Shown here: positions 15,843 to 43,649 of the stretch, in pieces
Numbering within the stretch: the first letter of the stretch is position 1
Layout of the letters: the number at the start of each line of letters is the position of its first letter
Source: an uncultured Gemmatimonadales bacterium
Lineage (GTDB): Bacteria > Gemmatimonadota > Gemmatimonadetes > Longimicrobiales > Gaopeijiaceae
Assembly: GCA_963809895.1 (NCBI GenBank)
Contig: CAWELD010000003.1
Location: 864,001 to 928,000, forward strand
DNA: 64,000 nucleotides
Reading direction: 5' to 3'
Notes under the pieces: generated by a model
What the model was told of the DNA's origin: nothing
The model's input: only the letters and a program-made list of their open reading frames with translations
The model's database searches: none
Position numbers and translations under genes: made by a program

Positions 15843-17006
15843 ATGACGGCACGGAGCGATGCCTGCGACGTGGCCGTGGTGGGCCTGGGAGGGGTGGGTA
15901 CCGCCGCCGCGTACCATCTGGCCCGGCGAGACGTCCAGGTCGTGGGCCTCGAGCGTTTCCGGATCCCCCACGACTGGGGATCGTCACACGGAGCGAGCCG
16001 CATCCTGAGGCTGGCGTACTTCGAGGACCCGGCCTACGTGCCACTGGCGCGGCGGGCCCTGGAACTGTGGGCCGACCTGGAGCGGGTCTCGGGCGAGCGC
16101 CTGTTCGTCCAGACCGGCAGCCTCGACGGCGGCCCCGAAGACGGCCCGCTGTTCTCCGGATCGCTGGCGTCGTGTCGAGCCCACGACCTGGACCACGAGG
16201 TGCTCGACGGTATGGCGCTGGCGCGGCGTTTCCCGGGCTTCCGCATGCCCGCTGGGCACCGGTTCGTTCTGCAGCCCGACGGAGGCATCCTCCGTCCCGA
16301 GCGGTGCACCGGAGCCCACGCCCGCATGGCGGAGGCCATGGGGGCGGAGCTCCGCACCGGCGTGCGTGTGGTGGGTTGGGAGACCGAGGGAGGCGGCGCA
16401 CGGGTCTTCCTGGAGGAGGGAGAGGAGCTCCGTTGCGGGGCGCTGGTGCTGACGCCGGGGCCCTGGGCCGGAGACCTGTTGCCCGGGATCGGTCGCGCCC
16501 TGCGGGTCGAGCGCCAGGTGGTGGGATGGACCCGGCCCCAACAGGAGACCCTCTTCGATCCGGGCCGCATGCCGGTGTACAACGTGGAAGTGGACGCGGG
16601 TCACCACTACGGGTTCCCGGCGCTGGACGGTGACGGTCCCAAGGTCGGCCGCTTCGGTCACCTGGGCGAGATCGTCGATCCCGACGAGGTCGACCGCACC
16701 CCCACGCCGGCCGACCGTGATGCGCTGCAGGCTTTCGCCGACCGGTACCTGGCCGACGCGGGACCGGTGGAGCGCATGATGGCCTGCCTGTTCACGCGCA
16801 CGCCGGACGGCCACTTCGTGGTGGACTGCATCCAGCGCGATCCGCCTGTGGCCGTGGGATGCGGCTTCAGCGGGCACGGGTTCAAGTTCGCCAGCGCCCT
16901 GGGCGAGTGTCTCGCCGGCCTGGTGCTGGACGGCGACGGCGGGCCCTGGATCGAGCATCTGAGATCCGACCGTCCCGGGCTGACTCCCGAAGGCGCCGAC
17001 GGTTGA
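15843..17006 (+). CDS. solA: N-methyl-L-tryptophan/sarcosine oxidase family flavoprotein
   Basis: VVGLGGVG FAD motif, GSSHGASRILR, ACLFT (flavinylation Cys), GFSGHGFKF. Confidence 0.85.
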   Translation: MTARSDACDVAVVGLGGVGTAAAYHLARRDVQVVGLERFRIPHDWGSSHGASRILRLAYFEDPAYVPLARRALELWADLERVSGERLFVQTGSLDGGPEDGPLFSGSLASCRAHDLDHEVLDGMALARRFPGFRMPAGHRFVLQPDGGILRPERCTGAHARMAEAMGAELRTGVRVVGWETEGGGARVFLEEGEELRCGALVLTPGPWAGDLLPGIGRALRVERQVVGWTRPQQETLFDPGRMPVYNVEVDAGHHYGFPALDGDGPKVGRFGHLGEIVDPDEVDRTPTPADRDALQAFADRYLADAGPVERMMACLFTRTPDGHFVVDCIQRDPPVAVGCGFSGHGFKFASALGECLAGLVLDGDGGPWIEHLRSDRPGLTPEGADG

Positions 17007-17037
17007 CGCCTGGCCGCCGCGCCACTACCCGTTGAGC

Positions 17038-17124
17038 ATGACCGACCTCTCCCGCACACCCCCGCTCCGATTTAGCCGCCGGCCATCCGCCGGTGGAGCG
17101 GGGTGCGTGCGCGGGTCGCCCTAG
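17038..17124 (+). CDS. Putative pheA leader peptide (28 aa, MTDLSRTPPLRFSRRPSAGGAGCVRGSP)
   Basis: ATG 6 nt after TTGACG-17-TACCCG; one TTT Phe codon; stops just before a strong terminator. Confidence 0.45.
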   Translation: MTDLSRTPPLRFSRRPSAGGAGCVRGSP

Positions 17125-17153
17125 GCGGCGCCACCCTGGGTACAGAGGTCCTG

Positions 17154-17190
17154 AGCGGGCCCTTCCTCCACCGGGAAGGGCCCGCTTTTT
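17154..17190 (+). terminator. Intrinsic terminator (attenuator-like) in the pheA leader
   Basis: Perfect 13-bp stem AGCGGGCCCTTCC/GGAAGGGCCCGCT plus T-tract, about 30 nt before the pheA ATG. Confidence 0.8.
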
Positions 17191-17219
17191 CGTATTCCCC
17201 CTCCGAGGCTGGCAGTCCC

Positions 17220-18365
17220 ATGACCGATCCCACATCCCCCTTGTGCGTCGCCTATCAGGGCGAGCCCGGTGCCTTCAGCGAAGAGGCCCTGCGGGCCTGG
17301 TTCGGTCCCGCGGCGACGCCCGTGGGCCATCGCGACTTCACCGGCCTGGTATGCGCCGTGGCCAGCGGAGAAGTCCCGTTCGGGGTGTTGCCCATCGAGA
17401 ACACCCTGGCCGGCGGCGTCGGCGCGGCTTGTGACGCCTTTCTCCGGGCCGACGTCGACGTGGTGGGCGAGATCGTGCACCCGATCCGGCACACCCTGTG
17501 GGCGCGGGCGGGCGCGTCGTTGTCCAATGTGCGCCGGGTGCTGTCGCATCCGGTGGCCCTGGCCCAGTGCCGCCGCTTCCTGGAGCGGCACCCGTGGCTG
17601 GAGGCGGTCCCGGTAGAGGACACCGCCGGCGCGGTGCGGCAGGTGGCCGAGTCGGGGAGCGAAGGCGACGCCGCGGTAGCGTCGGGGGGCGTGGGCGCAC
17701 GCTTCGGTTTGTCGGCGCTGGCGTCGGACGTCCAGGATCGTGCCGACAATCAGACCCGCTTCTGGGTCCTGCGGGCGTGGGAGGCGGCGCCGGGACCTTC
17801 AGGCGCGCCTCGTGGGCCGTGGAAGACACTGCTCGACTTCACGACGCCCCACAGGCCGGGCGCCCTCATGCGGGTCCTGCGGGCGCTGGCCGACGGGGGC
17901 CTCAACCTCGCGTCGTTGGACTCGCGTCCCGGCGAAGAGCCGTGGACCTACCGCTTCGTGGCCGAGCTCGAAGGGCGTCTGGAAGGCGAGGACGCCGAGA
18001 CGGCACTTCGCCAGGCGCGATCCCACGCGCTCACCCTCCGCGCACGAGGGCCCTATCAGGTCCTTCACACCCAGGACGACGACGGCCCGCCACGGGCGGC
18101 GCGGGGCGGGGGACCCCTGGACCTGGAGGAGCTGAGGTCCGGCATCGACGCCATCGACCGCACCCTTCTCGGCCTGCTGGCACGACGGCGGGAACTGGCA
18201 CGCCGGGCTCAGGAGACCCGGCAACGCGAAGGCGACGTCCAGCGCGATCCCCCGCGCGAAGCCGACGTCATCCGGCGAGCCGCGACCCGCGCGCGGGAGC
18301 TGGACCTTCCGGACGAGGAGGTGCGACGCATCATGTGGAGCGTGGTGGCGCTGTGCGTGGCCTAA
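17220..18365 (+). CDS. pheA: Prephenate dehydratase-ACT with C-terminal chorismate mutase domain
   Basis: AYQGEPGAFSE, PIENT, SHPVALAQC, NQTRF, ACT (HRPGAL, LDSRP), then LEELRSGIDAIDR..RR...RDPPRE (AroQ-type CM). Confidence 0.85.
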   Translation: MTDPTSPLCVAYQGEPGAFSEEALRAWFGPAATPVGHRDFTGLVCAVASGEVPFGVLPIENTLAGGVGAACDAFLRADVDVVGEIVHPIRHTLWARAGASLSNVRRVLSHPVALAQCRRFLERHPWLEAVPVEDTAGAVRQVAESGSEGDAAVASGGVGARFGLSALASDVQDRADNQTRFWVLRAWEAAPGPSGAPRGPWKTLLDFTTPHRPGALMRVLRALADGGLNLASLDSRPGEEPWTYRFVAELEGRLEGEDAETALRQARSHALTLRARGPYQVLHTQDDDGPPRAARGGGPLDLEELRSGIDAIDRTLLGLLARRRELARRAQETRQREGDVQRDPPREADVIRRAATRARELDLPDEEVRRIMWSVVALCVA

Positions 18366-20607: not shown

Positions 20608-21900
20608 ATGCGCTTCACCAGCACCCGGGGCCACGGACCGGTCTCGCTGACCACGGCCCTCCTGGAGGGTCCGGCGCCGGACGGCGGCCTGTACCTGCCC
20701 GAGCGCATCCCACGCGTGGACTTCGCCGGGGCGCCGCCAGAGCCGGGTCTCGCCACCATTGCCGCATGGACGTTGGCGCCGTACCTGACGCCGGACCTCG
20801 ACCCCTCGGAGCTGCGTCGCCTCCTGGCCGACGCCCTGGACTTCCCGGTGCCTCTCGTCCGCCTCGACGACACCACGGCCGTGCTCGAGCTGACGCACGG
20901 GCCCACGGCGGCCTTCAAGGACGTGGGAGCGCGTGTGCTGGCCCGGCTGCTGGCGGCTCTCACCACCGAGGACCGTCGCCGGACGGTTCTGGTGGCCACC
21001 TCGGGCGATACCGGCGGCGCGGTGGCCGCCGCCTTTCACGGAATGGAGGGATTCCGGGTCGTGGTGCTCTTTCCAGAGGGACGCGTGAGCCTCGGACAGC
21101 GGCGCCAGTTCACCACCCTGGGTGACAACGTCCGCGCGGTCGCCGTGGACGGCCCCTTCGATGCCTGTCAGCGATTGGCGAGGGAGGCGTTCGCCGACGC
21201 CGCGCTCCGGGCGGAACACGGGCTCACGTCGGCCAATTCCCTCAACATCGGAAGGCTGTTGCCCCAGGTCGCCTACTACGTCTACGCCGAGCGCCTGGCG
21301 GCACGGGAGTGGGACGAGGCACCGCTGTTCGTGGTCCCGTCCGGGAACCTGGGCAACCTCACCGCGGGGCTGCTGGCAGCGCGCATGGGGATGCCGGTGG
21401 GGGGATTCCTGGCCGCCGTAAACGCCAACGACGCCTTCGCCCGCTACCTTGACGGCGCCCACCCGGACCCGGACGGTGGCACGGTGCCCACGCTGTCCAG
21501 CGCCATGGACGTGGGCCGCCCCAGCAATCTGGAGCGGCTCCGATATCTGGCCGGAGGCGACCGGCGGGCACTGGCCCGGGACGTACGCGCAAGGGCGGTG
21601 GGCGACGACGAAACGCTGGCCTGGATGCGCCGGTTGCAGGAGAAGGGTGGCTACCTTGCCGATCCCCATACCGCGGTGGGGTTCGCGGCACTCGAGCGTG
21701 TGCGGGCCGAGTCGGGCACCCGCGCGTCGGCGGTGGTGCTGGCCACCGCGCACCCGGGCAAGTTCCCCGACGCCGTCCGCGAGGCTACGGGCCAGGACCC
21801 GCCCGTGCCTCCGGCTCTCGCCACCGACGCCGGACGCCGGGAAGACTTCGACGGGATCCCCCCGGTGTTGGAGGCCTTGGCGGAGTTGCTCCACCGCTGA
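20608..21900 (+). CDS. thrC: Threonine synthase
   Basis: MRFTSTRG, APDGGLYLP, HGPTAAFKD (PLP Lys), ATSGDTG, SANSLN, PSGNLGN, TAHPGKF. Confidence 0.92.
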   Translation: MRFTSTRGHGPVSLTTALLEGPAPDGGLYLPERIPRVDFAGAPPEPGLATIAAWTLAPYLTPDLDPSELRRLLADALDFPVPLVRLDDTTAVLELTHGPTAAFKDVGARVLARLLAALTTEDRRRTVLVATSGDTGGAVAAAFHGMEGFRVVVLFPEGRVSLGQRRQFTTLGDNVRAVAVDGPFDACQRLAREAFADAALRAEHGLTSANSLNIGRLLPQVAYYVYAERLAAREWDEAPLFVVPSGNLGNLTAGLLAARMGMPVGGFLAAVNANDAFARYLDGAHPDPDGGTVPTLSSAMDVGRPSNLERLRYLAGGDRRALARDVRARAVGDDETLAWMRRLQEKGGYLADPHTAVGFAALERVRAESGTRASAVVLATAHPGKFPDAVREATGQDPPVPPALATDAGRREDFDGIPPVLEALAELLHR

Positions 21901-21921
21901 GCTCCGCTCGGACCGAAACCG

Positions 21922-21951
21922 TTGACCGGTGCCCCGATCAGGCGCTAGCCT
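21922..21951 (+). promoter_or_regulatory. Sigma70-type promoter for leader-thrB-asnB
   Basis: TTGACC-18-TAGCCT; ATG of the leader ORF 6 nt downstream (leaderless geometry). Confidence 0.6.
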
Positions 21952-21957
21952 TGCGAC

Positions 21958-22035
21958 ATGCCATCGATCCTCAGCAACCGCCCGAATACCAATCGCCGCC
22001 CTCCGGGGGTCGGCGGAGACACGGGCGTGCGCTGA
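21958..22035 (+). CDS. Putative Asn-rich leader peptide (25 aa, MPSILSNRPNTNRRPPGVGGDTGVR)
   Basis: Asn codons AAC, AAT, AAT at positions 7, 10, 12 with Thr11; lies between the promoter and terminator. Confidence 0.55.
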   Translation: MPSILSNRPNTNRRPPGVGGDTGVR

Positions 22036-22063
22036 CGATCCCACGCCGAGACACTCCGACGCG

Positions 22064-22094
22064 GCCTCCCGGTATCGATCCGGGGGGCTTTTTT
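22064..22094 (+). terminator. Intrinsic terminator (attenuator-like) before thrB
   Basis: GCCTCCCGG-TATCGAT-CCGGGGGGC followed by T6. Confidence 0.8.
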
Positions 22095-22115
22095 CGTTCC
22101 CACACGACACAGACC

Positions 22116-23048
22116 ATGACGGACAGACTACACGCGGCGCGCGTATGGGCGCCCGCATCGACCTCGAACCTCGGGCCGGGCTTCGACACCCTCGGGCTGG
22201 CGCTGGACCGCGGCGTCGAAATGAGCTTCCGGCCCGGCGGTGAGGGCTTCCGCGTGCAACGCTCGGGAACGTTGCCCCCGGAGCTGGCCACGAAGGAGGA
22301 TCTGGCGGTGCAGGCCTTCCTGGCCGCCGTGGGGGCCCGCGGGATCGCGCCCGCACCTGCCGGTCTCCTGAGGGTCGAGTCCAGCATCCCCGTGGGCAGG
22401 GGCCTCGGCTCGTCGGCCGCGGCACGGGTCGCCGGCGCCATGGTGGGCCATCTGGTCCGGGGCCGGGAGCCGGTCCGCCGGACGCTCCTCGAGCAGGCCG
22501 CGCGCGCCGAGGGACATCCGGACAACGCGGCTCCGGCGGTGCTGGGGGGATTCGTAGCGTCGGTGAGCGGACCCGAAGGCCTCACGGTCGCGTCACTGCC
22601 GCTGTCGCCGGCGGTGGGTCTCGCCTTCGCGGAGCCCGGAGTGCCGGTCCATACTGAAGACGCACGGCGCGCGCTACCCAGCGAGGTGCCCCACGCCGTA
22701 GCGGCACGCACCGCGGGACGCCTCGCGGTCCTGATCCATGGGCTGGCCGTGGCCGACCCTTCGCTGATCCGGGTCGGGCTGGAGGACGAGCTCCACGTGC
22801 CCTTCCGACTTCCCCTGGTTCCTGGCGGTGAGGCCGCCATGAAGGCTGCCCGCGAGGCCGGCGCCTGGGGGGTGACGCTCTCCGGGAGCGGCTCGGGGCT
22901 GTTGGCCTTCTGCCCCCGCGAGGATGCGAGCGACCTCGCCTCCACCATGGCCGAAGCCTTCCGGAGCGTCGGCCAGGAGGGAGCGACCGGCTTTCCCCTG
23001 CGGCCGGACCCGTTGGGCGCGCGCCGCCTGCCCCTGGACCACCCCTAG
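22116..23048 (+). CDS. thrB: Homoserine kinase
   Basis: APASTSNLGPGFDTLG, IPVGRGLGSSAA (GHMP), EGHPDN, LSGSG. Confidence 0.92.
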   Translation: MTDRLHAARVWAPASTSNLGPGFDTLGLALDRGVEMSFRPGGEGFRVQRSGTLPPELATKEDLAVQAFLAAVGARGIAPAPAGLLRVESSIPVGRGLGSSAAARVAGAMVGHLVRGREPVRRTLLEQAARAEGHPDNAAPAVLGGFVASVSGPEGLTVASLPLSPAVGLAFAEPGVPVHTEDARRALPSEVPHAVAARTAGRLAVLIHGLAVADPSLIRVGLEDELHVPFRLPLVPGGEAAMKAAREAGAWGVTLSGSGSGLLAFCPREDASDLASTMAEAFRSVGQEGATGFPLRPDPLGARRLPLDHP

Positions 23049-23068
23049 CCGAGACGACGGAGACCCCC

Positions 23069-24733
23069 ATGTGCTCGATCCTCGCCGCCCTGGACATCCG
23101 GGGCGATGCCGCCACCACCCGGGAGCGCGCCCTGCGGTCGTCGCGACTGCAGCGTCATCGGGGCCCGGACTGGTCCGGCGTGTGGGCCGACGACGACAGC
23201 CTCCTGGTCCACGAGCGTCTCGCCATCGTCGACGTGTTGCACGGCGCCCAGCCGCTGGAGAGCCCCGACGGAGCCCAGGCGCTGGCCGTCAACGGAGAGA
23301 TCTACAATCATCGCGAGCTCCGGGCGGGCCTCCGCGAGCCCTACGCCTTCACCACGGACTCGGATTGCGAGGTGTTGTTGCCCCTCTACCGGGAGCGTGG
23401 CGCGGACTTTCTCGAGTCCCTGAACGGAATCTTCGCCTTCGTCCTCAAGGACCGCTCCACCGGGGCCGTCCTGGTCGCGCGCGATCACCTGGGCATCGTG
23501 CCGCTCTACATGGGCCGCGACGCCGACGGCACCCTCTGGATCGCATCGGAGATGAAGGCGCTGGTACCGCTGTGCCCGACGGTGCGGGAGTTCCCGCCCG
23601 GGCATCTGCTGGACGACCCGGCGGGCGAACCGCGCCCGTGGTACCACCCGGCGTGGCGCACCCTGGAGGGCCTCCGGCGGGACGCGGCCGACCCGGCACG
23701 CCTCCGCGACGCCCTGGACCGGGCGGTGCGGCGCCAGCTCATGAGCGACGTGCCCTACGGCGTGCTGCTCTCCGGCGGGCTCGACTCGTCGGTGATCGCG
23801 GCCCTGGCGGCCCGGCACGCGGCGGCGCGGGTGGAGGACGACGAGCGCACGGCCGCCTGGTGGCCCCGCCTGCACTCCTTCGCCATCGGGCTCGAGGGCT
23901 CGCCCGATCTGGCGGCGGCGCGCCTGGTCGCCGAGCACATCGGCTCGGTGCACCACGAATTCCACTTCACGGTGGAGGAGGGCATCGACGCCTTGCCGGA
24001 CGTGATCTGGCACCTGGAGACCTACGACGTGACCACCGTACGGGCTGCGACGCCCATGTTCCTTCTGGCTCGGCGCATCCGGGCCATGGGGGTCAAGATG
24101 GTGCTGAGCGGCGAAGGCGCCGACGAGATCTTCGGGGGATACCTCTACTTCCATCGTGCGCCGGACGACGACGCCTTCCACGAGGAGACCGTGCGCAAGC
24201 TGGACCGGTTGCACGCCTACGATTGCCTGCGCGCCAACAAGGCCACGGCCGCCTGGGGAGTGGAAGCCCGGGTGCCCTTCCTGGACCGGGAGTTCCTGGA
24301 GATGGCCATGCACCTGGATCCCGGGGCCAAACGGCCGGGGCAGGGCAGGATGGAGAAGCAGATCCTGCGCGAGGCCTTCGCAGACCTGTTACCCGCGGAG
24401 GTGGCCTGGCGTCAGAAGGAGCAGTTCTCCGACGGCGTGGGCTACGGCTGGATCGACGGACTCAAGGAGCACGCCGCGAGCCGGGTCCGCCCCGACGAGC
24501 TGGCCCAGGCGGCGTACCGCTTTCCGCACAATCCCCCCGATACCGCCGAGGCGTATCTGTATCGCAGCCTCTTCGAGGAGCATTTCCCGCTTCCGGCGGC
24601 GGCGGCCTGCGTGCCCGGCGGGCCCTCCGTTGCGTGCAGCACGCCGGAGGCGCTGGCCTGGGATCCGGAGCTGGCGGCCGTCACCGATCCCTCGGGCCGG
24701 GCCGTGCGGGGAGTGCACCGGAACAGCTACTGA
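23069..24733 (+). CDS. asnB: Glutamine-dependent asparagine synthetase B
   Basis: N-terminal Cys2, HRGPD, NGEIYN, LLSGGLDSS, SGEGADE, RVPFLD, RQKEQFSDGVG. Confidence 0.95.
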   Translation: MCSILAALDIRGDAATTRERALRSSRLQRHRGPDWSGVWADDDSLLVHERLAIVDVLHGAQPLESPDGAQALAVNGEIYNHRELRAGLREPYAFTTDSDCEVLLPLYRERGADFLESLNGIFAFVLKDRSTGAVLVARDHLGIVPLYMGRDADGTLWIASEMKALVPLCPTVREFPPGHLLDDPAGEPRPWYHPAWRTLEGLRRDAADPARLRDALDRAVRRQLMSDVPYGVLLSGGLDSSVIAALAARHAAARVEDDERTAAWWPRLHSFAIGLEGSPDLAAARLVAEHIGSVHHEFHFTVEEGIDALPDVIWHLETYDVTTVRAATPMFLLARRIRAMGVKMVLSGEGADEIFGGYLYFHRAPDDDAFHEETVRKLDRLHAYDCLRANKATAAWGVEARVPFLDREFLEMAMHLDPGAKRPGQGRMEKQILREAFADLLPAEVAWRQKEQFSDGVGYGWIDGLKEHAASRVRPDELAQAAYRFPHNPPDTAEAYLYRSLFEEHFPLPAAAACVPGGPSVACSTPEALAWDPELAAVTDPSGRAVRGVHRNSY

Positions 24734-27621: not shown

Positions 27622-27726
27622 GACACGGGGGCGGGTCCGCCGGGGAACCCTGCGCCCGACCTCGGGTGTTCCAGCGACAAGCCGTCCCTGAAATCATCTC
27701 ACCTACCCTCCACCCCGCAGCGCCCC

Positions 27727-29055
27727 ATGGACCTCCACGCAGGCCGGTCTCTCCACGCGTGCGAGATCGCCGAGCTCCTCTCGGAAGCCCGCCAGCGCAC
27801 CCTCCTTCTGGTGGCTCCGCTCACCGACGACGAGCTCCGTCGGCAGCACGATCCCCTCATGAGTCCCATCGTCTGGGATCTGGGCCACATCGCCCACTTC
27901 GAGGAGGTCTGGCTGCTGGAGAACGTGGAGGGTGAGGGCCCGGGAAGCGAGGGTCTGCGGGGGATGTATAACCCGTTCGAGCACCCCCGCTCCACCCGCG
28001 ACACCCTCCCGCTGCCGGGGCTGCGCGACGTCCGGGAGATCCTCGGGCGGGTCCGCAGAGCCGTCCTGGACCGGCTGACGACGCTGCCGCTCGAAGGCGA
28101 TCAGCCCCTCCTGCGCGACGGGTTCGTCTTCCGCATGGTGCTCCAGCACGAGTACCAGCACTGCGAGACGATCCTGCAGACGTTGCAGCTCATGCAGGGG
28201 CGCCACTATCCGGCCCCCAGGGCGGTGGTGGTCCCGCGCGCCACCGCTCCCGTCGGCGGCGCGCAGCCCGACGGCATGGTCCGGGTCCCGGGAGGCAGCT
28301 ACACGGTGGGGACCGACGACGCCAGCGAGGCCTACGACAACGAGCGCCCTCGACACCAGGTGTCTCTGGAGTCCTTTCTCATCGACGCGACCCCGGTCAC
28401 CAACGAGCGCTACCTCGAGTTCATGGCGGATGGCGGCTATCGGCGGCGAGAGCTGTGGGCCCCCGAGGGATGGGCGTGGCTCCAGGACGACGGAGCGGCG
28501 GCCCCCCGGCACTGGCGTCGGCAGGACGGCCGCTGGATGGAGCGCTTCATGGACCTGGAGCGGGAGGTGGACCCCCGGCGGCCCGTGTGCCACGTGTGTT
28601 ACTGGGAGGCGGACGCGTGGGCTCGCTGGGCCGGGAAACGGCTCCCCACGGAGCAGGAGTGGGAGGTGGCGGCCTGCTGGGATCCGGAAGGAGGGCGCGC
28701 GCGCCGGTTCCCCTGGGGCGACGAGCCCGCGACCCAGCGTCTGGCCAACGTCGATGCGGCCACCTTCGATACCGCGCCGGTGGGAGCCTACGCCGGCAAC
28801 GTCTCCCCCCTGGGATGCTACGGGATGATCGGCGACGTGTGGGAGTGGACGTCGACGGACTTCCACGGCTATCCGGGCTACCGGACGTTCCCCTACCCGG
28901 AGTATTCGGAGGCCTTCTTCGGCACCGAGTACAAGGTGCTGCGTGGGGGATCCTGGGCGACCCGGGGCGGGGCCGTCCGTGGCACCTTCAGGAACTGGGA
29001 CTATCCCATCCGTCGCCAGATCTTCTCCGGCTTCCGCTGTGCCCGCGATGCTTGA
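27727..29055 (+). CDS. egtB: Ergothioneine sulfoxide synthase (DinB + FGE-sulfatase domains)
   Basis: MSPIVWDLGH and HEYQHCE iron ligands; FPYPEYSEAFF; RNWDYPIRRQIFSGFR, resembling mycobacterial EgtB. Confidence 0.9.
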   Translation: MDLHAGRSLHACEIAELLSEARQRTLLLVAPLTDDELRRQHDPLMSPIVWDLGHIAHFEEVWLLENVEGEGPGSEGLRGMYNPFEHPRSTRDTLPLPGLRDVREILGRVRRAVLDRLTTLPLEGDQPLLRDGFVFRMVLQHEYQHCETILQTLQLMQGRHYPAPRAVVVPRATAPVGGAQPDGMVRVPGGSYTVGTDDASEAYDNERPRHQVSLESFLIDATPVTNERYLEFMADGGYRRRELWAPEGWAWLQDDGAAAPRHWRRQDGRWMERFMDLEREVDPRRPVCHVCYWEADAWARWAGKRLPTEQEWEVAACWDPEGGRARRFPWGDEPATQRLANVDAATFDTAPVGAYAGNVSPLGCYGMIGDVWEWTSTDFHGYPGYRTFPYPEYSEAFFGTEYKVLRGGSWATRGGAVRGTFRNWDYPIRRQIFSGFRCARDA

Positions 29056-30028
29056 CATCGACACCTCGGGGGATGGATCGGCGGAACCCGCCGGGTTGGC
29101 CCGCCTGCGCGATGAGGTATGGGCCGGACTGCACCGCCGCGAGCTCAGCTCCAAGTGGTTCTACGACACCCGCGGCTCGCAGCTCTTCGAGGCCATCACC
29201 CGGTTGCCCGAGTATTACCCCACCCGCACCGAGCAGGCGCTCCTGGAGCGACACACGCCTCGCTGGATGGAGCGTGTGCGCCCGGCGTGCATCCTGGAGC
29301 TGGGAGCCGGTAGCGCCCGCAAGACGAGGGTGCTTCTCGACGCCATGGAAGCGGAGCGCCCCAGGGGGAGCTACCTGCCGGTGGACGTGAGCGCGGAGTT
29401 CCTCGACGCCACCGCAGAGGAGCTGAGGCGCGAATACCCCGATCTCACGGTGGAGCCCGTGGTCGCGGATCTGTCCAGGCCGTTGCGCCTCGACCGGTCC
29501 ATGCCACGCCCGCTGCTGGCGGCGCTCCTGGGTAGCACCATCGGCAACTTCCGGCCCCTGGCCGCGGTGCGGCTCCTCGGCGGCCTCGCCGGACTCATGC
29601 GTCCGGGCGACCGCTTCCTCATGGGCGCGGATCTTCGCCCCGGGCCCGGCAAGTCGCGGGGGGTGCTCGAGGCGGCGTACAACGACGCCGCCGGGGTCAC
29701 GGCCGAGTTCAACCTGAACATGCTGCGCCGCCTCAATCGCGAGGCTGGCACCGATTTCGACCTGTCCGCCTTTCGGCATCACGCCTGCTACGACGACGTA
29801 CAGGGACGCATCGAGATGTACCTGGTGCCTCAGCGCGACGTGCGCGTGAACGTTCCCGGGCGCGGGGCCGTGGCACTCGCCGCCGGCGAGGGACTGCGCA
29901 CCGAGATCTCGTGCAAGTACGATCTGGAGACCGTCGAGGCGCTCTTCGACGAGTCGGGTCTGGCGGTGGACGACTGGGTCACCGACGAGGGCCAGCGGTA
30001 CGCACTCGCCCTGGGGAGGCTCCGCTGA
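29048..30028 (+). CDS. egtD: L-histidine N-alpha-trimethyltransferase
   Basis: KWFYDTRGSQLFEAITRLPEYYPTRTE, ELGAG, GSTIGN, AYND, TEISCKY. Confidence 0.95.
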   Translation: MLDIDTSGDGSAEPAGLARLRDEVWAGLHRRELSSKWFYDTRGSQLFEAITRLPEYYPTRTEQALLERHTPRWMERVRPACILELGAGSARKTRVLLDAMEAERPRGSYLPVDVSAEFLDATAEELRREYPDLTVEPVVADLSRPLRLDRSMPRPLLAALLGSTIGNFRPLAAVRLLGGLAGLMRPGDRFLMGADLRPGPGKSRGVLEAAYNDAAGVTAEFNLNMLRRLNREAGTDFDLSAFRHHACYDDVQGRIEMYLVPQRDVRVNVPGRGAVALAAGEGLRTEISCKYDLETVEALFDESGLAVDDWVTDEGQRYALALGRLR

Positions 30029-30033
30029 ATCCC

Positions 30034-31290
30034 GTGGGAGCGGCGCTCGAGACCGGCGCGCTGGAAGCCGACGTGCGCCGGCGCCTCTTCCAGGCGCCCG
30101 ATCCGTCCGCGCCGTTTCGGTTGGGAATGGAGGCGGAGGTGATCCCTCTGGACGCGGACAGTGGGCGCCCGTGTCCCATCGAGCCGTCGCCGGTGGAGCC
30201 GGGTGTGCGGCCGTCGGGGCCCGTCCTGCGTGCCTGGGCACGCCGCCGGGGCTGGTCCGAGACGAAGTCCGCGGCCGGCGCGCCCGCGTTTCGCGATCCC
30301 CGGGGCCGCCTCCTGTCGTTCGAGCCGGGTGGGCAGATCGAGTACAGCTCGCCCACGGCCGCCGATGCCGGGAGTCTGTTGGCCGACGTGCGCGCCGTGC
30401 TGGAGCCCCTGGCCGGCGAAGCGCTGGACGCGGGCATCCGGCTGCTGGCGCGCGGCATGGACCCCGACACGCCGGTGGCAGCCACCGCGCTCCGGGTGGA
30501 CGCCGACCGTTACCGTCGCATGAGCGCGCACTACGATCGGCACGGCCCCGCCGGCCGTCGAATGATGCGGCAGACGGCCGCGTTGCACCTGAACCTGGAC
30601 CTCGGAGCGCACCCTCGGGAGCGTTGGTGGGTCGCCAACGCACTGGTGCCCGCGTTGATCGCCCTGTTCGCGAACTCACCCCGCGCGGAGGGTCGTGCTT
30701 CGGGGTTTCGCAGCACGCGAGCCCAGCAATGGCGTGAGCTGGATCCGGCACGGACCGGCGTCCAGGGAAGGGAGGAGGATCCCGAGGCGGCTTACCTGGC
30801 GTTCGCCCTGGACGCTCCTGCCTTCCTCCTGGGTCCGGAGGATGGGCTCGCCCGATCGTTCCGGAGCTGGGCGGCCTCCGGTGCCGATACCGCCGACTGG
30901 CGCACACACCTGACCACGCTGTTCCCGGAAGTGCGTCCCCGGGGCTACCTGGAACTGCGCTGCCTGGACGCGCTCCCCCTCCGCTGGTACGGGGCGCCCC
31001 TGGCCCTGTGCACCGGGGTGCTGTGGAACGAGCCGACGCTGCGGGAGTCGCTGGAGGCATTGCCCGCGGCCGACGCGCACATCCTCGAACGGGCGGGACG
31101 CCACGGCCTGGCCGACCCGGAGGTCGCGGCGCGCGCCGCCCTGGCGCTGGACCTGGCGCTGACCGGTCTCCGACGCATGGGCGACGATGGATGGCCGGGC
31201 GGGGCGGACCTGCTCCAGGAGTTCCGCGACCGCTTCACGGCCTGCGGCATGGATCCCGGCCACGACGCGGCCGAGGACCTGCTGGACTGA
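30034..31290 (+). CDS. egtA: Glutamate-cysteine ligase (GCS2 family), EgtA-like
   Basis: GMEAE, SFEPGGQIEYSS, MMRQTAALHLNLD, FANSP, HLTTLFPEVRPRGYLELR. Start uncertain (30025-30034). Confidence 0.85.
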   Translation: MGAALETGALEADVRRRLFQAPDPSAPFRLGMEAEVIPLDADSGRPCPIEPSPVEPGVRPSGPVLRAWARRRGWSETKSAAGAPAFRDPRGRLLSFEPGGQIEYSSPTAADAGSLLADVRAVLEPLAGEALDAGIRLLARGMDPDTPVAATALRVDADRYRRMSAHYDRHGPAGRRMMRQTAALHLNLDLGAHPRERWWVANALVPALIALFANSPRAEGRASGFRSTRAQQWRELDPARTGVQGREEDPEAAYLAFALDAPAFLLGPEDGLARSFRSWAASGADTADWRTHLTTLFPEVRPRGYLELRCLDALPLRWYGAPLALCTGVLWNEPTLRESLEALPAADAHILERAGRHGLADPEVAARAALALDLALTGLRRMGDDGWPGGADLLQEFRDRFTACGMDPGHDAAEDLLD

Positions 31291-40977: not shown

Positions 40978-42382
40978 ATGAGCCTGTCCGACGACACCCC
41001 GAAACCCGCCGGCGCCCTCTGGGGAGGCCGCTTCGAGGGCGGCATGGCGCCGTCCATGATCCCCCTGAACCTCAGCCTCGACGTGGATCGGCGCCTCTGG
41101 CGTCAGGATCTGCGTGGGAGCCGGGCCTGGGCCACGGCGCTGGGGCGCGCCGGTGTGCTGTCGGAGGATGAGGTCGACGCCCTCCACCGGGGACTGGACG
41201 CCGTGAAGGCGCGCCTGCAGGCCTGGACCTGGGGAGGCGAGCCCGACGAGGACATCCACTCGCTGGTGGAGCGGCTTCTGCACGAGGAAGCGGGACCGGT
41301 CGCCGGCAAGCTGCACACCGGTCGCTCGCGCAACGATCAGGTGGCCACCGACCTGCGGCTCTGGGTCCGGGACGAGATCGGGCCGCTGGTGGAGGCCCTG
41401 GGGCAGTTGGCCGGTGGTCTCGTGGAGCTGGCCACCTCGGGTGTGGACCTCATCATGCCCGGGTACACGCACCTGCAGCAGGCCCAGCCCATTCGGGCGG
41501 CCCATTGGGCCCTCGCCCACGTGTGGCCCCTGCTCCGGGATCGCCGGCGCCTGAGGGCGGTGGATCGCTCCGCCGCCGAGCTTCCCCTCGGGCAGCGGCG
41601 CGGTGGCGGGGTGCCCGTTTCCGGTGGACCGGGAAGAGCTGGCGCTGGCGCTGGGGTTTCAGACCGTGAGCGCCAACAGCCTGGACGCGATCAGCGACCG
41701 GGACTTCGTGGCGGAGCTCCTCTTCGCCGGCGCGCTCCTGGGGGTGCACCTGTCGCGGCTCGCCGAGGACCTGGTCCTGTTCTCCTCGCGCGAGTTCGCC
41801 TTCGTCCGCCTGGACGACGGCTACTCCACCGGCTCGAGCCTCATGCCGCAGAAGCGCAATCCCGACGTCGCGGAGCTCAGCCGGGGCAAGAGCGGGCGGC
41901 TGACCGGCAACCTCATGGGGATGCTCACGCTGCTCAAGGGTCTGCCCACGGGCTACAATCGGGACCTGCAGGAGGACAAGTCGCTCCTCTTCGATACGGT
42001 GGACACGCTCCGCCTGGTCCTGCCGGCGCTGGCCGGCGCCGTCGCCACGGCCCGCTTTCGGCCCGAGCACATCCACGAGCGGCTGGACACGCAGCTTCTC
42101 GCCACCGACCTGGCGGACTATCTGGTGCGCCGGGGCGTGCCGTTCCGCCGGAGCCACGAAGCCGTGGGCATCCTGGTGCGCCGAGCCGAGGAGCGCGGTT
42201 GCTCGCTGGAGGACCTGGCCGACGAGGACTACCAGGCCGCGCATCCGGCCTTCGACGCCGACGTGCGCGGGGTCTTCGACTGGGACCGCTCGGTCGACTC
42301 CCGCGCGGCCCAGGGCGGGACGGCCCGGGAGGCCGTCGTGACCCAGCTGGCCACGGCCCGGGAGCAGCTCTCGGAATCGTGA
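40978..42382 (+). CDS. argH: Argininosuccinate lyase, +1 frameshift at about 41591
   Basis: LWGGRF, GKLHTGRSRNDQ, MPGYTHLQ, LPLG/SGAVAG broken by an extra G, STGSSLMPQKRNPD, YNRDLQEDK. Confidence 0.9.
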
Positions 42383-42392
42383 GCCGCAGCGG

Positions 42393-43430
42393 CTACGCCG
42401 CGGCCACTTCGACCTCGCGCATGGTGCGGCCCGCCGCGGCCGCGAAGGGCCGAAGCGCTTCCATGAAGGCGTCGAAGCCGTCCAGGGTGAGGGACTGATC
42501 ACCGTCCGAGACCGCCCGCTCCGGATCCGGGTGCACCTCCACCAGCAGCCCGTCGGCGCCCGCGGCCACCGACGCCAACGCAAGCGGCGTCACCAGCTCG
42601 CGGATCCCCCCGGCGTGGCTCGGATCGGCGAACACGGGCAGGTGCGTCTCGCGCTTGAGCACCGGAATCGCCGACACGTCCAGCGTGTTGCGCGTCGCCG
42701 TCTCGAAGGTGCGGATGCCCCGTTCGCACAGGATCACCTGCATGTTGCCCTGGCTCATGACGTACTCGGCGGCCAGAAGCAGGTCCTTGACCGTGGCGCT
42801 CATGCCCCGCTTCAGCAGGACGGGCCGGTGCAGGCGCCCCACCTCGGTGAGCAGCGCGAAGTTCTGCATGTTGCGGGCTCCGATCTGGAGCACGTCGGCG
42901 TAGCCGGCCACCAGCTCCACCTGACGGGTGTCCATGACCTCCGTGACCACCGGCAGGCCCGTCTCGCGCCGCACGTCGGCCAGGTGGCGAAGTCCTTCCT
43001 CGCCCAGCCCCCGGAAGGCGTAGGGAGAGGTGCGGGGCTTGAAGGCGCCGCCCCGGAGCCCGAGACCCCCGGCCGCCGCGACCCGGGCACCGGTCTCCCG
43101 CAGCATGTCGAGCCCCTCCACCGAGCAGGGCCCCGCCACCACCACCAGCTCGTCGCCGCCGACGTCGGTGGATCCCAGCGGGATGCGCGTGGGACCGGCG
43201 GCGAAGGGCCGTGACGCCAGCTTGTAGGGCTTGAGCACGGGGTGCACCGCCTCCACGCCCGGGATCGAGCGCAGGGGGATCTCCCGCAGGCGGGTCTCGT
43301 CGCCCACGCAGCCGATGACCGTGCGTTGCTCTCCCCGCGACAGGTGCGTGCGGAGCCCCAGCGACTCCACCCGCTCGCGAATGTGGTCCAGCTCCTCGTC
43401 GGTGACGCCGGCTCGGGTCACGATGATCAT
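42393..43430 (-). CDS. aroF: DAHP synthase type I-beta with N-terminal regulatory domain
   Basis: [44 protein letters not shown]. Confidence 0.93.
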
Positions 43431-43553: not shown

Positions 43554-43649
43554 TCAGAGCACGCGCGGACTCCCGGCGCCCGTGGGGTAGCCGTAATACC
43601 AGAAGCCGAAATGCCGGCGCCGGGTGAACGTGCTCGCGTGCGGTGTCAT
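43554..43649 (-). CDS. aroF leader peptide (31 aa, MTPHASTFTRRRHFGFWYYGYPTGAGSPRVL)
   Basis: Seven aromatic codons (3 Phe, 1 Trp, 3 Tyr), six of them in FGFWYYGY; between promoter and terminator. Confidence 0.8.
   Translation of the reverse strand: MTPHASTFTRRRHFGFWYYGYPTGAGSPRVL

Follow-up and report, generated by a model that had tools for sequence, protein, structure and literature searches.

A candidate asparagine-sensing leader-peptide attenuator ahead of thrB–asnB in an uncultured Gemmatimonadales bacterium

We analysed a 64,000-nucleotide (nt) stretch of DNA from an uncultured Gemmatimonadales bacterium (contig CAWELD010000003.1, positions 864,001–928,000; hereafter the window), in which a short leader precedes the genes for homoserine kinase (thrB) and glutamine-dependent asparagine synthetase B (asnB). 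Judged from its sequence and that of its relatives, this leader is very probably a ribosome-mediated transcription attenuator that senses charged Asn-tRNA and permits read-through into thrB–asnB when asparagine is scarce. We infer the response to asparagine from the parts of the leader, their spacing, their conservation and their covariation. Leaders of this kind probably, though with distinctly less certainty, make up a widespread and undescribed class of Asn-sensing attenuators, AAU-preferring and often leaderless, that spans Gemmatimonadota, Acidobacteriota and Lysobacterales and has here captured a homoserine kinase gene, offering a snapshot of target gain.

Leader and operon

The locus comprises the following elements, all on the forward strand.

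20608..21900, +: thrC, threonine synthase (TIGR00260, 237 bits, above cut-off), the upstream neighbour of the leader
21922..21951, +: predicted sigma70-type promoter (−35 TTGACC 21922–21927, 18 nt, −10 TAGCCT 21946–21951)
21958..22035, +: predicted leaderless leader open reading frame (ORF) of 25 codons, MPSILSNRPNTNRRPPGVGGDTGVR, called from the sequence and homologous leaders
21976..21993, +: control codons (Asn7 AAC 21976, Asn10 AAT 21985, Thr11 ACC, Asn12 AAT 21991)
21994..22015, +: predicted 1:2 hairpin (anti-antiterminator or pause hairpin), which appears in ribosome-free folds
22003..22072, +: predicted 2:3 antiterminator (−36.5 kcal/mol), which takes up the terminator 5′ arm
22063..22094, +: intrinsic terminator (3:4), 10-bp stem plus T6 (−19.8 kcal/mol; covariation)
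22116..23048, +: thrB, homoserine kinase (TIGR00191, 180.8 bits, above cut-off)
23069..24733, +: asnB, glutamine-dependent asparagine synthetase B (PRK09431, 841.8 bits, above cut-off)

A prior interpretation of this DNA from its letters and ORFs (the sequence-only reading) had located the promoter boxes, ORF, Asn codons, hairpin, complementary segment, T6 terminator and thrB–asnB, and all of its coordinates agree with the sequence. The leader ATG (21958) lies six bases past the −10 box with no Shine–Dalgarno sequence, and the same promoter geometry precedes the His and aromatic leaders of this genome and two homologues (L003 and L201). Besides the Asn codons, the ORF encodes Ile4, Thr11 and Thr22; leader peptides, this one included, had no match in NCBIfam or Pfam. 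The 1:2 hairpin pairs CGCCG (21994) with CGGCG (22011) (−15.2 kcal/mol for 21994–22018), CCGGGGG (22003–22009) is complementary to CTCCCGG (22066–22072) in the terminator arm, and the antiterminator 5′ strand begins 12 nt beyond the first nucleotide of the Asn12 codon, the last of the three. The terminator stem occupies 22063–22089 and the T6 tract 22089–22094. On inspection of the sequence ahead of thrB, no clear Shine–Dalgarno sequence was seen; asnB starts 20 nt beyond thrB.

Three Asn codons within six, in a small ORF so positioned, arose in a fraction of only 0.0004 of 20,000 dinucleotide shuffles of 21901–22085, and a run of any of 13 residues in 0.033 of the same shuffles. The sequence-only reading had also called AAT unusual at this GC content; indeed, AAT accounts for 13% of Asn codons in a crude set of long ORFs from this genome, so its use for two of the three Asn codons stands out. 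The overall fold of 21958–22100 was not more stable than that of shuffled sequences (z −1.44).

In the mechanism that we propose, transcription would start at the ATG or close to it, and translation of the ORF would be leaderless. With ample Asn-tRNA, the ribosome would pass codon 13 and cover 22003 onward, freeing 22063–22072 for the terminator to form. With scarce Asn-tRNA, it would stall at codons 7–12, covering strand 1 and leaving 22003 onward free; the 2:3 helix would then form ahead of synthesis of the terminator 3′ arm, and the polymerase would read through. Untranslated transcripts, such as read-through from thrC—which would offer the ORF no ribosome-binding site—would fold into the 1:2 and 3:4 helices and terminate. 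As a passenger, homoserine kinase would come under the same control.

Conservation upstream of asnB

Loci with asnB were drawn from 61 relatives, from 401 genomes within the phylum and from a species-wide scan of contigs. We kept 139 distinct upstream regions (for the window's genome, the region before thrB), leaving out ten loci of distant asnB-like paralogues (L021–L030), 15 duplicates and three truncated loci. The filter for Asn leaders required an ORF of 12–40 codons with at least three Asn in eight codons, plus a terminator-like hairpin. Such a hairpin was found in 46 of the 139 regions, and 27 of these 46 carried an Asn-rich ORF where dinucleotide shuffles gave an expectation of 0.21; among the 93 regions without a terminator call, one did. 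Conservation of the Asn codons, on which the sequence-only reading had staked its proposal, was thus borne out. No other biosynthetic residue was enriched in the terminator-bearing regions: the counts were 2 for Thr (1.95 expected), 1 for Ile (0.5) and 0 for Asp (0.77). The suggestion that the leader senses Asn and perhaps also Thr therefore held for Asn, with little in favour of Thr. Arg was about twofold over expectation (20 versus 10.7). One passing region (L093) was A/T-rich and was dropped as a likely chance hit, leaving 26 leaders including that of the window.

Examples of these leaders are MRATGCTLNNNNNRNP... (L005), MRADTNVNRPNSNRQPP... (L003) and, from Arenimonas, MNINTSNNNNRLP... (L138); in Lysobacteraceae, to which that Arenimonas genome belongs, 12 of the best 30 of 99 matches pass the Asn filter, one of them repeating L138. 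Of the 26 leaders, all but the window's are followed immediately by asnB. The share of Asn among their codons is 18%, versus 1.9% in the long-ORF set of the window's genome (a 9.6-fold enrichment), and AAT makes up 71 of their 121 Asn codons versus 13% in that genome, although the leader-bearing genomes vary in base content. The last Asn sits 13–17 codons from the stop in 19/26 leaders.

On a quick tree of 87 full-length AsnB proteins, the presence of the leader requires at least seven changes. The window's AsnB groups with those of L003, L004 and three asnB loci lacking a leader (Shimodaira–Hasegawa-like approximate likelihood ratio test, 93), and the leaders of L003 and L004 are those most alike to the window's, N-R-P-N-x-N-R being common to L003 and the window. 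The nearest named AsnB records belong to Gemmatimonadota, many of them to Longimicrobiales. When the leader region was searched as DNA against 20 genomes of the genus, matches beyond the window's genome were confined to the thrB part, so the leader is not findable by DNA similarity. A plasmid search added nothing.

Two further patterns came up in these comparisons. Upstream of asnB in three Planctomycetota loci (L109, L111 and L126) is a conserved small ORF starting MKVSLNTNKVR; it has two clustered Asn, lacks a strong terminator call and may be a further leader that responds to Asn. In genome G047 (L227, ~1590–1560, minus strand), a TTGACT-17-TAGAGT promoter is followed at once by pheA, whose product starts MNNQNSNR, encoded with AAT codons, and it looks as though pheA had been fused to the 5′ half of an Asn leader; the asnB of the same genome (L010) has no leader.

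Antiterminator and terminator

The sequence-only reading had proposed that an antiterminator competes with the terminator, and both helices covary among homologues. In a MAFFT alignment of 15 of the 26 leaders, the antiterminator helix was paired in 86% of cells with 10 compensatory cells (0/500 shuffles; slid controls paired in 42–51%), the helix having been read off a single member (L062), a choice that gives it an advantage over the slid controls; the terminator helix was paired in 95.5% of cells with 12 compensatory cells. The antiterminator strands also pair better with their own terminator arm (−18.4 kcal/mol) than with those of other leaders (−14.2 kcal/mol; 0/100,000 permutations), a preference that persists among the 15 aligned leaders, which are close relatives (p = 0.00018). 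In 22/26 leaders, the segment that best complements the terminator arm begins 8–22 nt after the last clustered Asn (+12 in the window), an offset that fits a ribosome footprint of about 12 nt as given in PMC4833913.

We then folded the leaders with a ribosome mask covering 12 nt past the A site and, for the window, a transcript end at 22079, scoring whether the terminator 5′ arm was paired upstream. The pairing probability of the window's arm was 0.86–0.89 with the ribosome at codons 4–11, 0.77 at codon 12, 0.43 at codon 13, 0.00–0.08 at codons 15–17, 0.43–0.49 at codons 20–24, 0.26 at the stop codon and 0.40 without a ribosome. Sequestration was higher in the stalled than in the stop-codon state in all 26 leaders (means, 0.73 and 0.25). 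In these folds a ribosome at codons 7–12 of the window's leader sequestered the arm at 0.77–0.89; the shuffle control described below was not significant for the window. We regard the comparative evidence for pairing as stronger than the masked folding.

Attenuators and asparagine metabolism in the genome

The genome contains 293 terminator-like sites, 40 of them with a small ATG ORF. The geometry of a promoter followed by a leaderless ORF occurs at three of the 293: the window's leader, a His-rich ORF before hisG and a Phe/Trp/Tyr-rich ORF before DAHP synthase. Because all three units match their genes, the organism appears to use this attenuator design with the matching amino acid each time. 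The His leader (L267 1115–1195, minus strand; G000 contig C10, about 403,100) has a run of four His and a terminator before hisG. The aromatic leader, at 43554–43649 of the window (minus strand), consists of a leaderless-type ORF, MTPHASTFTRRRHFGFWYYGYPTGAGSPRVL, in which Phe, Trp and Tyr codons occur together, and a terminator before DAHP synthase (42393–43430).

Another leader at 17003–17193 (plus strand), before pheA at 17220, is a probable Phe attenuator with a single TTT codon; it comprises a TTGACG box, an ORF at 17038–17124 (MTDLSRTPPLRFSRRPSAGGAGCVRGSP), a T5 terminator and the segment CCGGTGGAG (17090), complementary to the terminator arm. Among 21 pheA loci examined, a CGATTTA (Arg-Phe) core with a terminator recurs in five of the same genus (L217–L221), and L222 carries a leader with five Phe.

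The genome (95% complete) encodes asnS and one tRNA-Asn(GUU); it gave no match to asnA and no full copy of gatB, only C-terminal gatB-like fragments. Asn-tRNA is therefore likely to be made from free asparagine supplied by AsnB.

Origin of the thrB–asnB unit

In the best 29 of 39 other thrB matches, thrC lies immediately upstream of thrB at 19 loci, with a gap of about −18 to +51 nt versus 216 nt here; asnB is absent within the examined flanks of all 29, and 13 then carry the lipoprotein or ATP-binding cassette (ABC) permease gene that follows asnB in the window. Since thrC abuts thrB in 19 of these loci and none of the 29 holds asnB, thrB looks captured here, and the gene order of the relatives suggests that an ancestral thrC–thrB–(lipoprotein)–ABC block acquired the leader upstream of thrB and asnB downstream. 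We take the leader to be asnB's own, with thrB probably placed between the two by a local rearrangement. The proposal that the leader governs thrB–asnB was supported for asnB, before which the relatives' leaders directly lie; the intervening thrB is peculiar to this genome among those examined. As for the path, we infer by analogy with L061 (thrB–thrC–leader–asnB) that the leader and asnB may have arrived after thrB, with local reshuffling thereafter.

In L061, L062 and L064, thrB lies about 1.3 kb upstream of an Asn leader and asnB, and the intervening gene of L061, judged by eye, resembles threonine synthase, which makes this a second instance of thr genes beside asnB. Two order-level relatives (L150 and L171) have Thr-rich leaders and terminators before thrB, each with six Thr, and L171 also with three Ile. 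An origin of the window's leader from such a Thr leader was rejected on sequence, the two not resembling it.

Weighing of alternatives

Several observations weigh against an Asn-sensing attenuator at this locus. A strict promoter scan of the leader region called no promoter, and the window's leader has only three Asn, at the low end of the leaders found; a low fraction of regulatory codons lowers attenuator sensitivity, according to PMC1183508. The complete unit is absent from 112 of the 139 asnB regions. In the masked folds, a shuffled segment after the footprint still sequestered the arm at about 0.4–0.7, as shuffled middles also pair with the G/C-rich arm, so masked folding without this control overstates the effect; the control gave p = 0.28 (arm) and 0.18 (energy) for the window, and p ≤ 0.05 was reached by only 5/26 (arm) and 14/26 (energy) leaders. 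The full-length equilibrium favours the terminator in nearly all states (mean 0.90–0.98); for the window, this balance is reversed by no stall other than that at codon 10. Because the terminator dominates in this way, read-through depends on folding order, with the antiterminator forming first, as in the classical race model (PMC1183508). A supposed link between the leader and a lack of gatB was not upheld, full gatB being present in two of five leader-bearing relatives (G060 and G050). Finally, all permutation and shuffle figures, including every p value given here, overstate the case because related genomes are not independent.

The best-surviving alternative, though an unlikely one, is a dual-input attenuator in which, after the capture of thrB, the leader also senses Thr (through Thr11 and possibly Ile4) and shortage of either amino acid induces thrB–asnB. 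Thr11 does belong to the codons at which stalling is predicted to promote the antiterminator (0.89), the terminator is followed first by thrB, and the closest homologues (L003 and L004) carry Ser at that place. However, there is a single Thr codon before the last Asn, and position 11 appears to be a free spacer: Thr fills the N-x-N spacer in 3/54 instances, including loci that lack thrB (L015 and L131), and at least one Thr precedes the last clustered Asn in 17/26 leaders, all of which but the window's have asnB directly downstream. True Thr/Ile leaders before thrB in relatives, those of L150 and L171, carry their six Thr, and both hom and thrC lie outside the leader–thrB–asnB unit.

Less probable still is a decaying relic, a leader that arrived together with asnB but no longer regulates, in which a leaky constitutive stop sets a low level of thrB–asnB and ends the thrC transcript. 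The small number of Asn and the non-significant antiterminator would fit, as would a terminator 3′ arm that is shorter than those of the relatives in the alignment, the lack of an obvious benefit from Asn control of thrB, and the state of a same-genus locus (L013) with only one Asn and a weak U-tract. Decay is nevertheless hard to reconcile with promoter boxes, ATG, frame, Asn spacing, rare AAT codons, +12 offset and T6 tract that are all intact, and asnB is likely to be a needed route, as no asnA or full gatB was found.

We give little credence to a nascent-peptide or sequence-specific stall in the Arg/Pro-rich tail, or to general nitrogen sensing, in place of Asn-tRNA itself. Pro-Pro-Gly is a pause motif, R-R-P-P-G directly follows the Asn block in the window, and Arg shows the mild enrichment noted above; yet Asn is all that is conserved in the peptide, the G/C-rich helices account for Arg and Pro, and a stall at codons 15–17 is predicted to favour termination rather than read-through. 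Least credible of all is an assembly chimera, for although the order leader–thrB–asnB occurs in 0/29 other thrB loci, the locus lies inside a 3.68-Mb contig, both flanks keep genus-level gene order with all genes intact, and thrB, thrC and the window's asnB are each single-copy in the genome.

Relation to known systems

Asparagine synthesis is coupled to asparagine status elsewhere by the Asn-specific T-box leaders of Firmicutes, which bind uncharged tRNA directly, and by the transcription factor AsnC, which controls asnA of Escherichia coli. At gathering threshold, Rfam 15 reported no leader, T-box or riboswitch in 21700–22300 of the window and no match in L005, L062, L138 or L171. A hit of the aspS motif RF02930 over the terminator (15.6 bits, E 6.7) was far below its gathering threshold of 42.5 and was treated as chance.

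The closest likeness is to the classical leader-peptide attenuators (trp, his, phe, leu, thr and ilv), which, as described in PMC1183508 and 10.1101/834739, combine end-product codons, a competing antiterminator, an intrinsic terminator and a downstream biosynthetic gene. The window has end-product (Asn) codons and an intrinsic terminator before the first gene; its predicted antiterminator overlaps the terminator 5′ arm, albeit weakly in the single-sequence shuffle control, and its control codons are placed such that the antiterminator strand would stay accessible during a ribosome stall. It differs from the classical cases in its Asn control codons, in an ORF predicted to be leaderless, and in its occurrence in Gemmatimonadota, Acidobacteriota and Lysobacterales. 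Leaders of the thrL type, including L150 and L171, likewise precede thrB and are similar in length and terminator style; in contrast to their Thr/Ile codon run, codons 1–12 of the window's leader hold one Thr and one Ile, and its three Asn match the asnB leaders. The mycobacterial polycysteine attenuators (10.1101/834739) also use a leaderless short ORF as an amino-acid sensor heading an operon, but act on translation by hiding the ribosome-binding site without termination, whereas the window has a T6 terminator and an antiterminator.

We found no Asn leader-peptide attenuator in Rfam 15 or in the literature searched, a set with few subscription papers, so that an earlier prediction may exist; word searches of the available text of PMC5737381, PMC2965389, PMC1183508, PMC4833913 and 10.1101/834739 returned no relevant asparagine passage. 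We regard the device as real: what the sequence points to is a new specificity of a known attenuation mechanism, with local capture of thrB.

Other genes in the window

Two overlapping ORFs in different frames at 40978–42382 (plus strand) together resemble argininosuccinate lyase by eye, possibly reflecting a frameshift or sequencing error. At 27703–31290 (plus strand), a cluster that by eye resembles one for ergothioneine synthesis (egtB-like, egtD-like methyltransferase and glutamate–cysteine ligase-like genes) adjoins an osmoprotectant-type ABC transporter, likewise named by eye.

Implications

If this interpretation is correct, asparagine would join the few amino acids known to be monitored by leader-peptide attenuation, and the mechanism would be shown in Gemmatimonadota, alongside the His, aromatic and probable single-Phe leaders of the same genome. 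As asparagine synthesis consumes glutamine and ATP, the leader may couple asnB to nitrogen status with no transcription factor involved. The AAU bias together with a single tRNA-Asn(GUU) would provide a test case for wobble-read codons tuning the sensitivity of an attenuator, and a short Asn leader element of this kind could act as an asparagine biosensor. The separation of thrB from thrC would illustrate how a regulatory RNA can gain a new gene through rearrangement.

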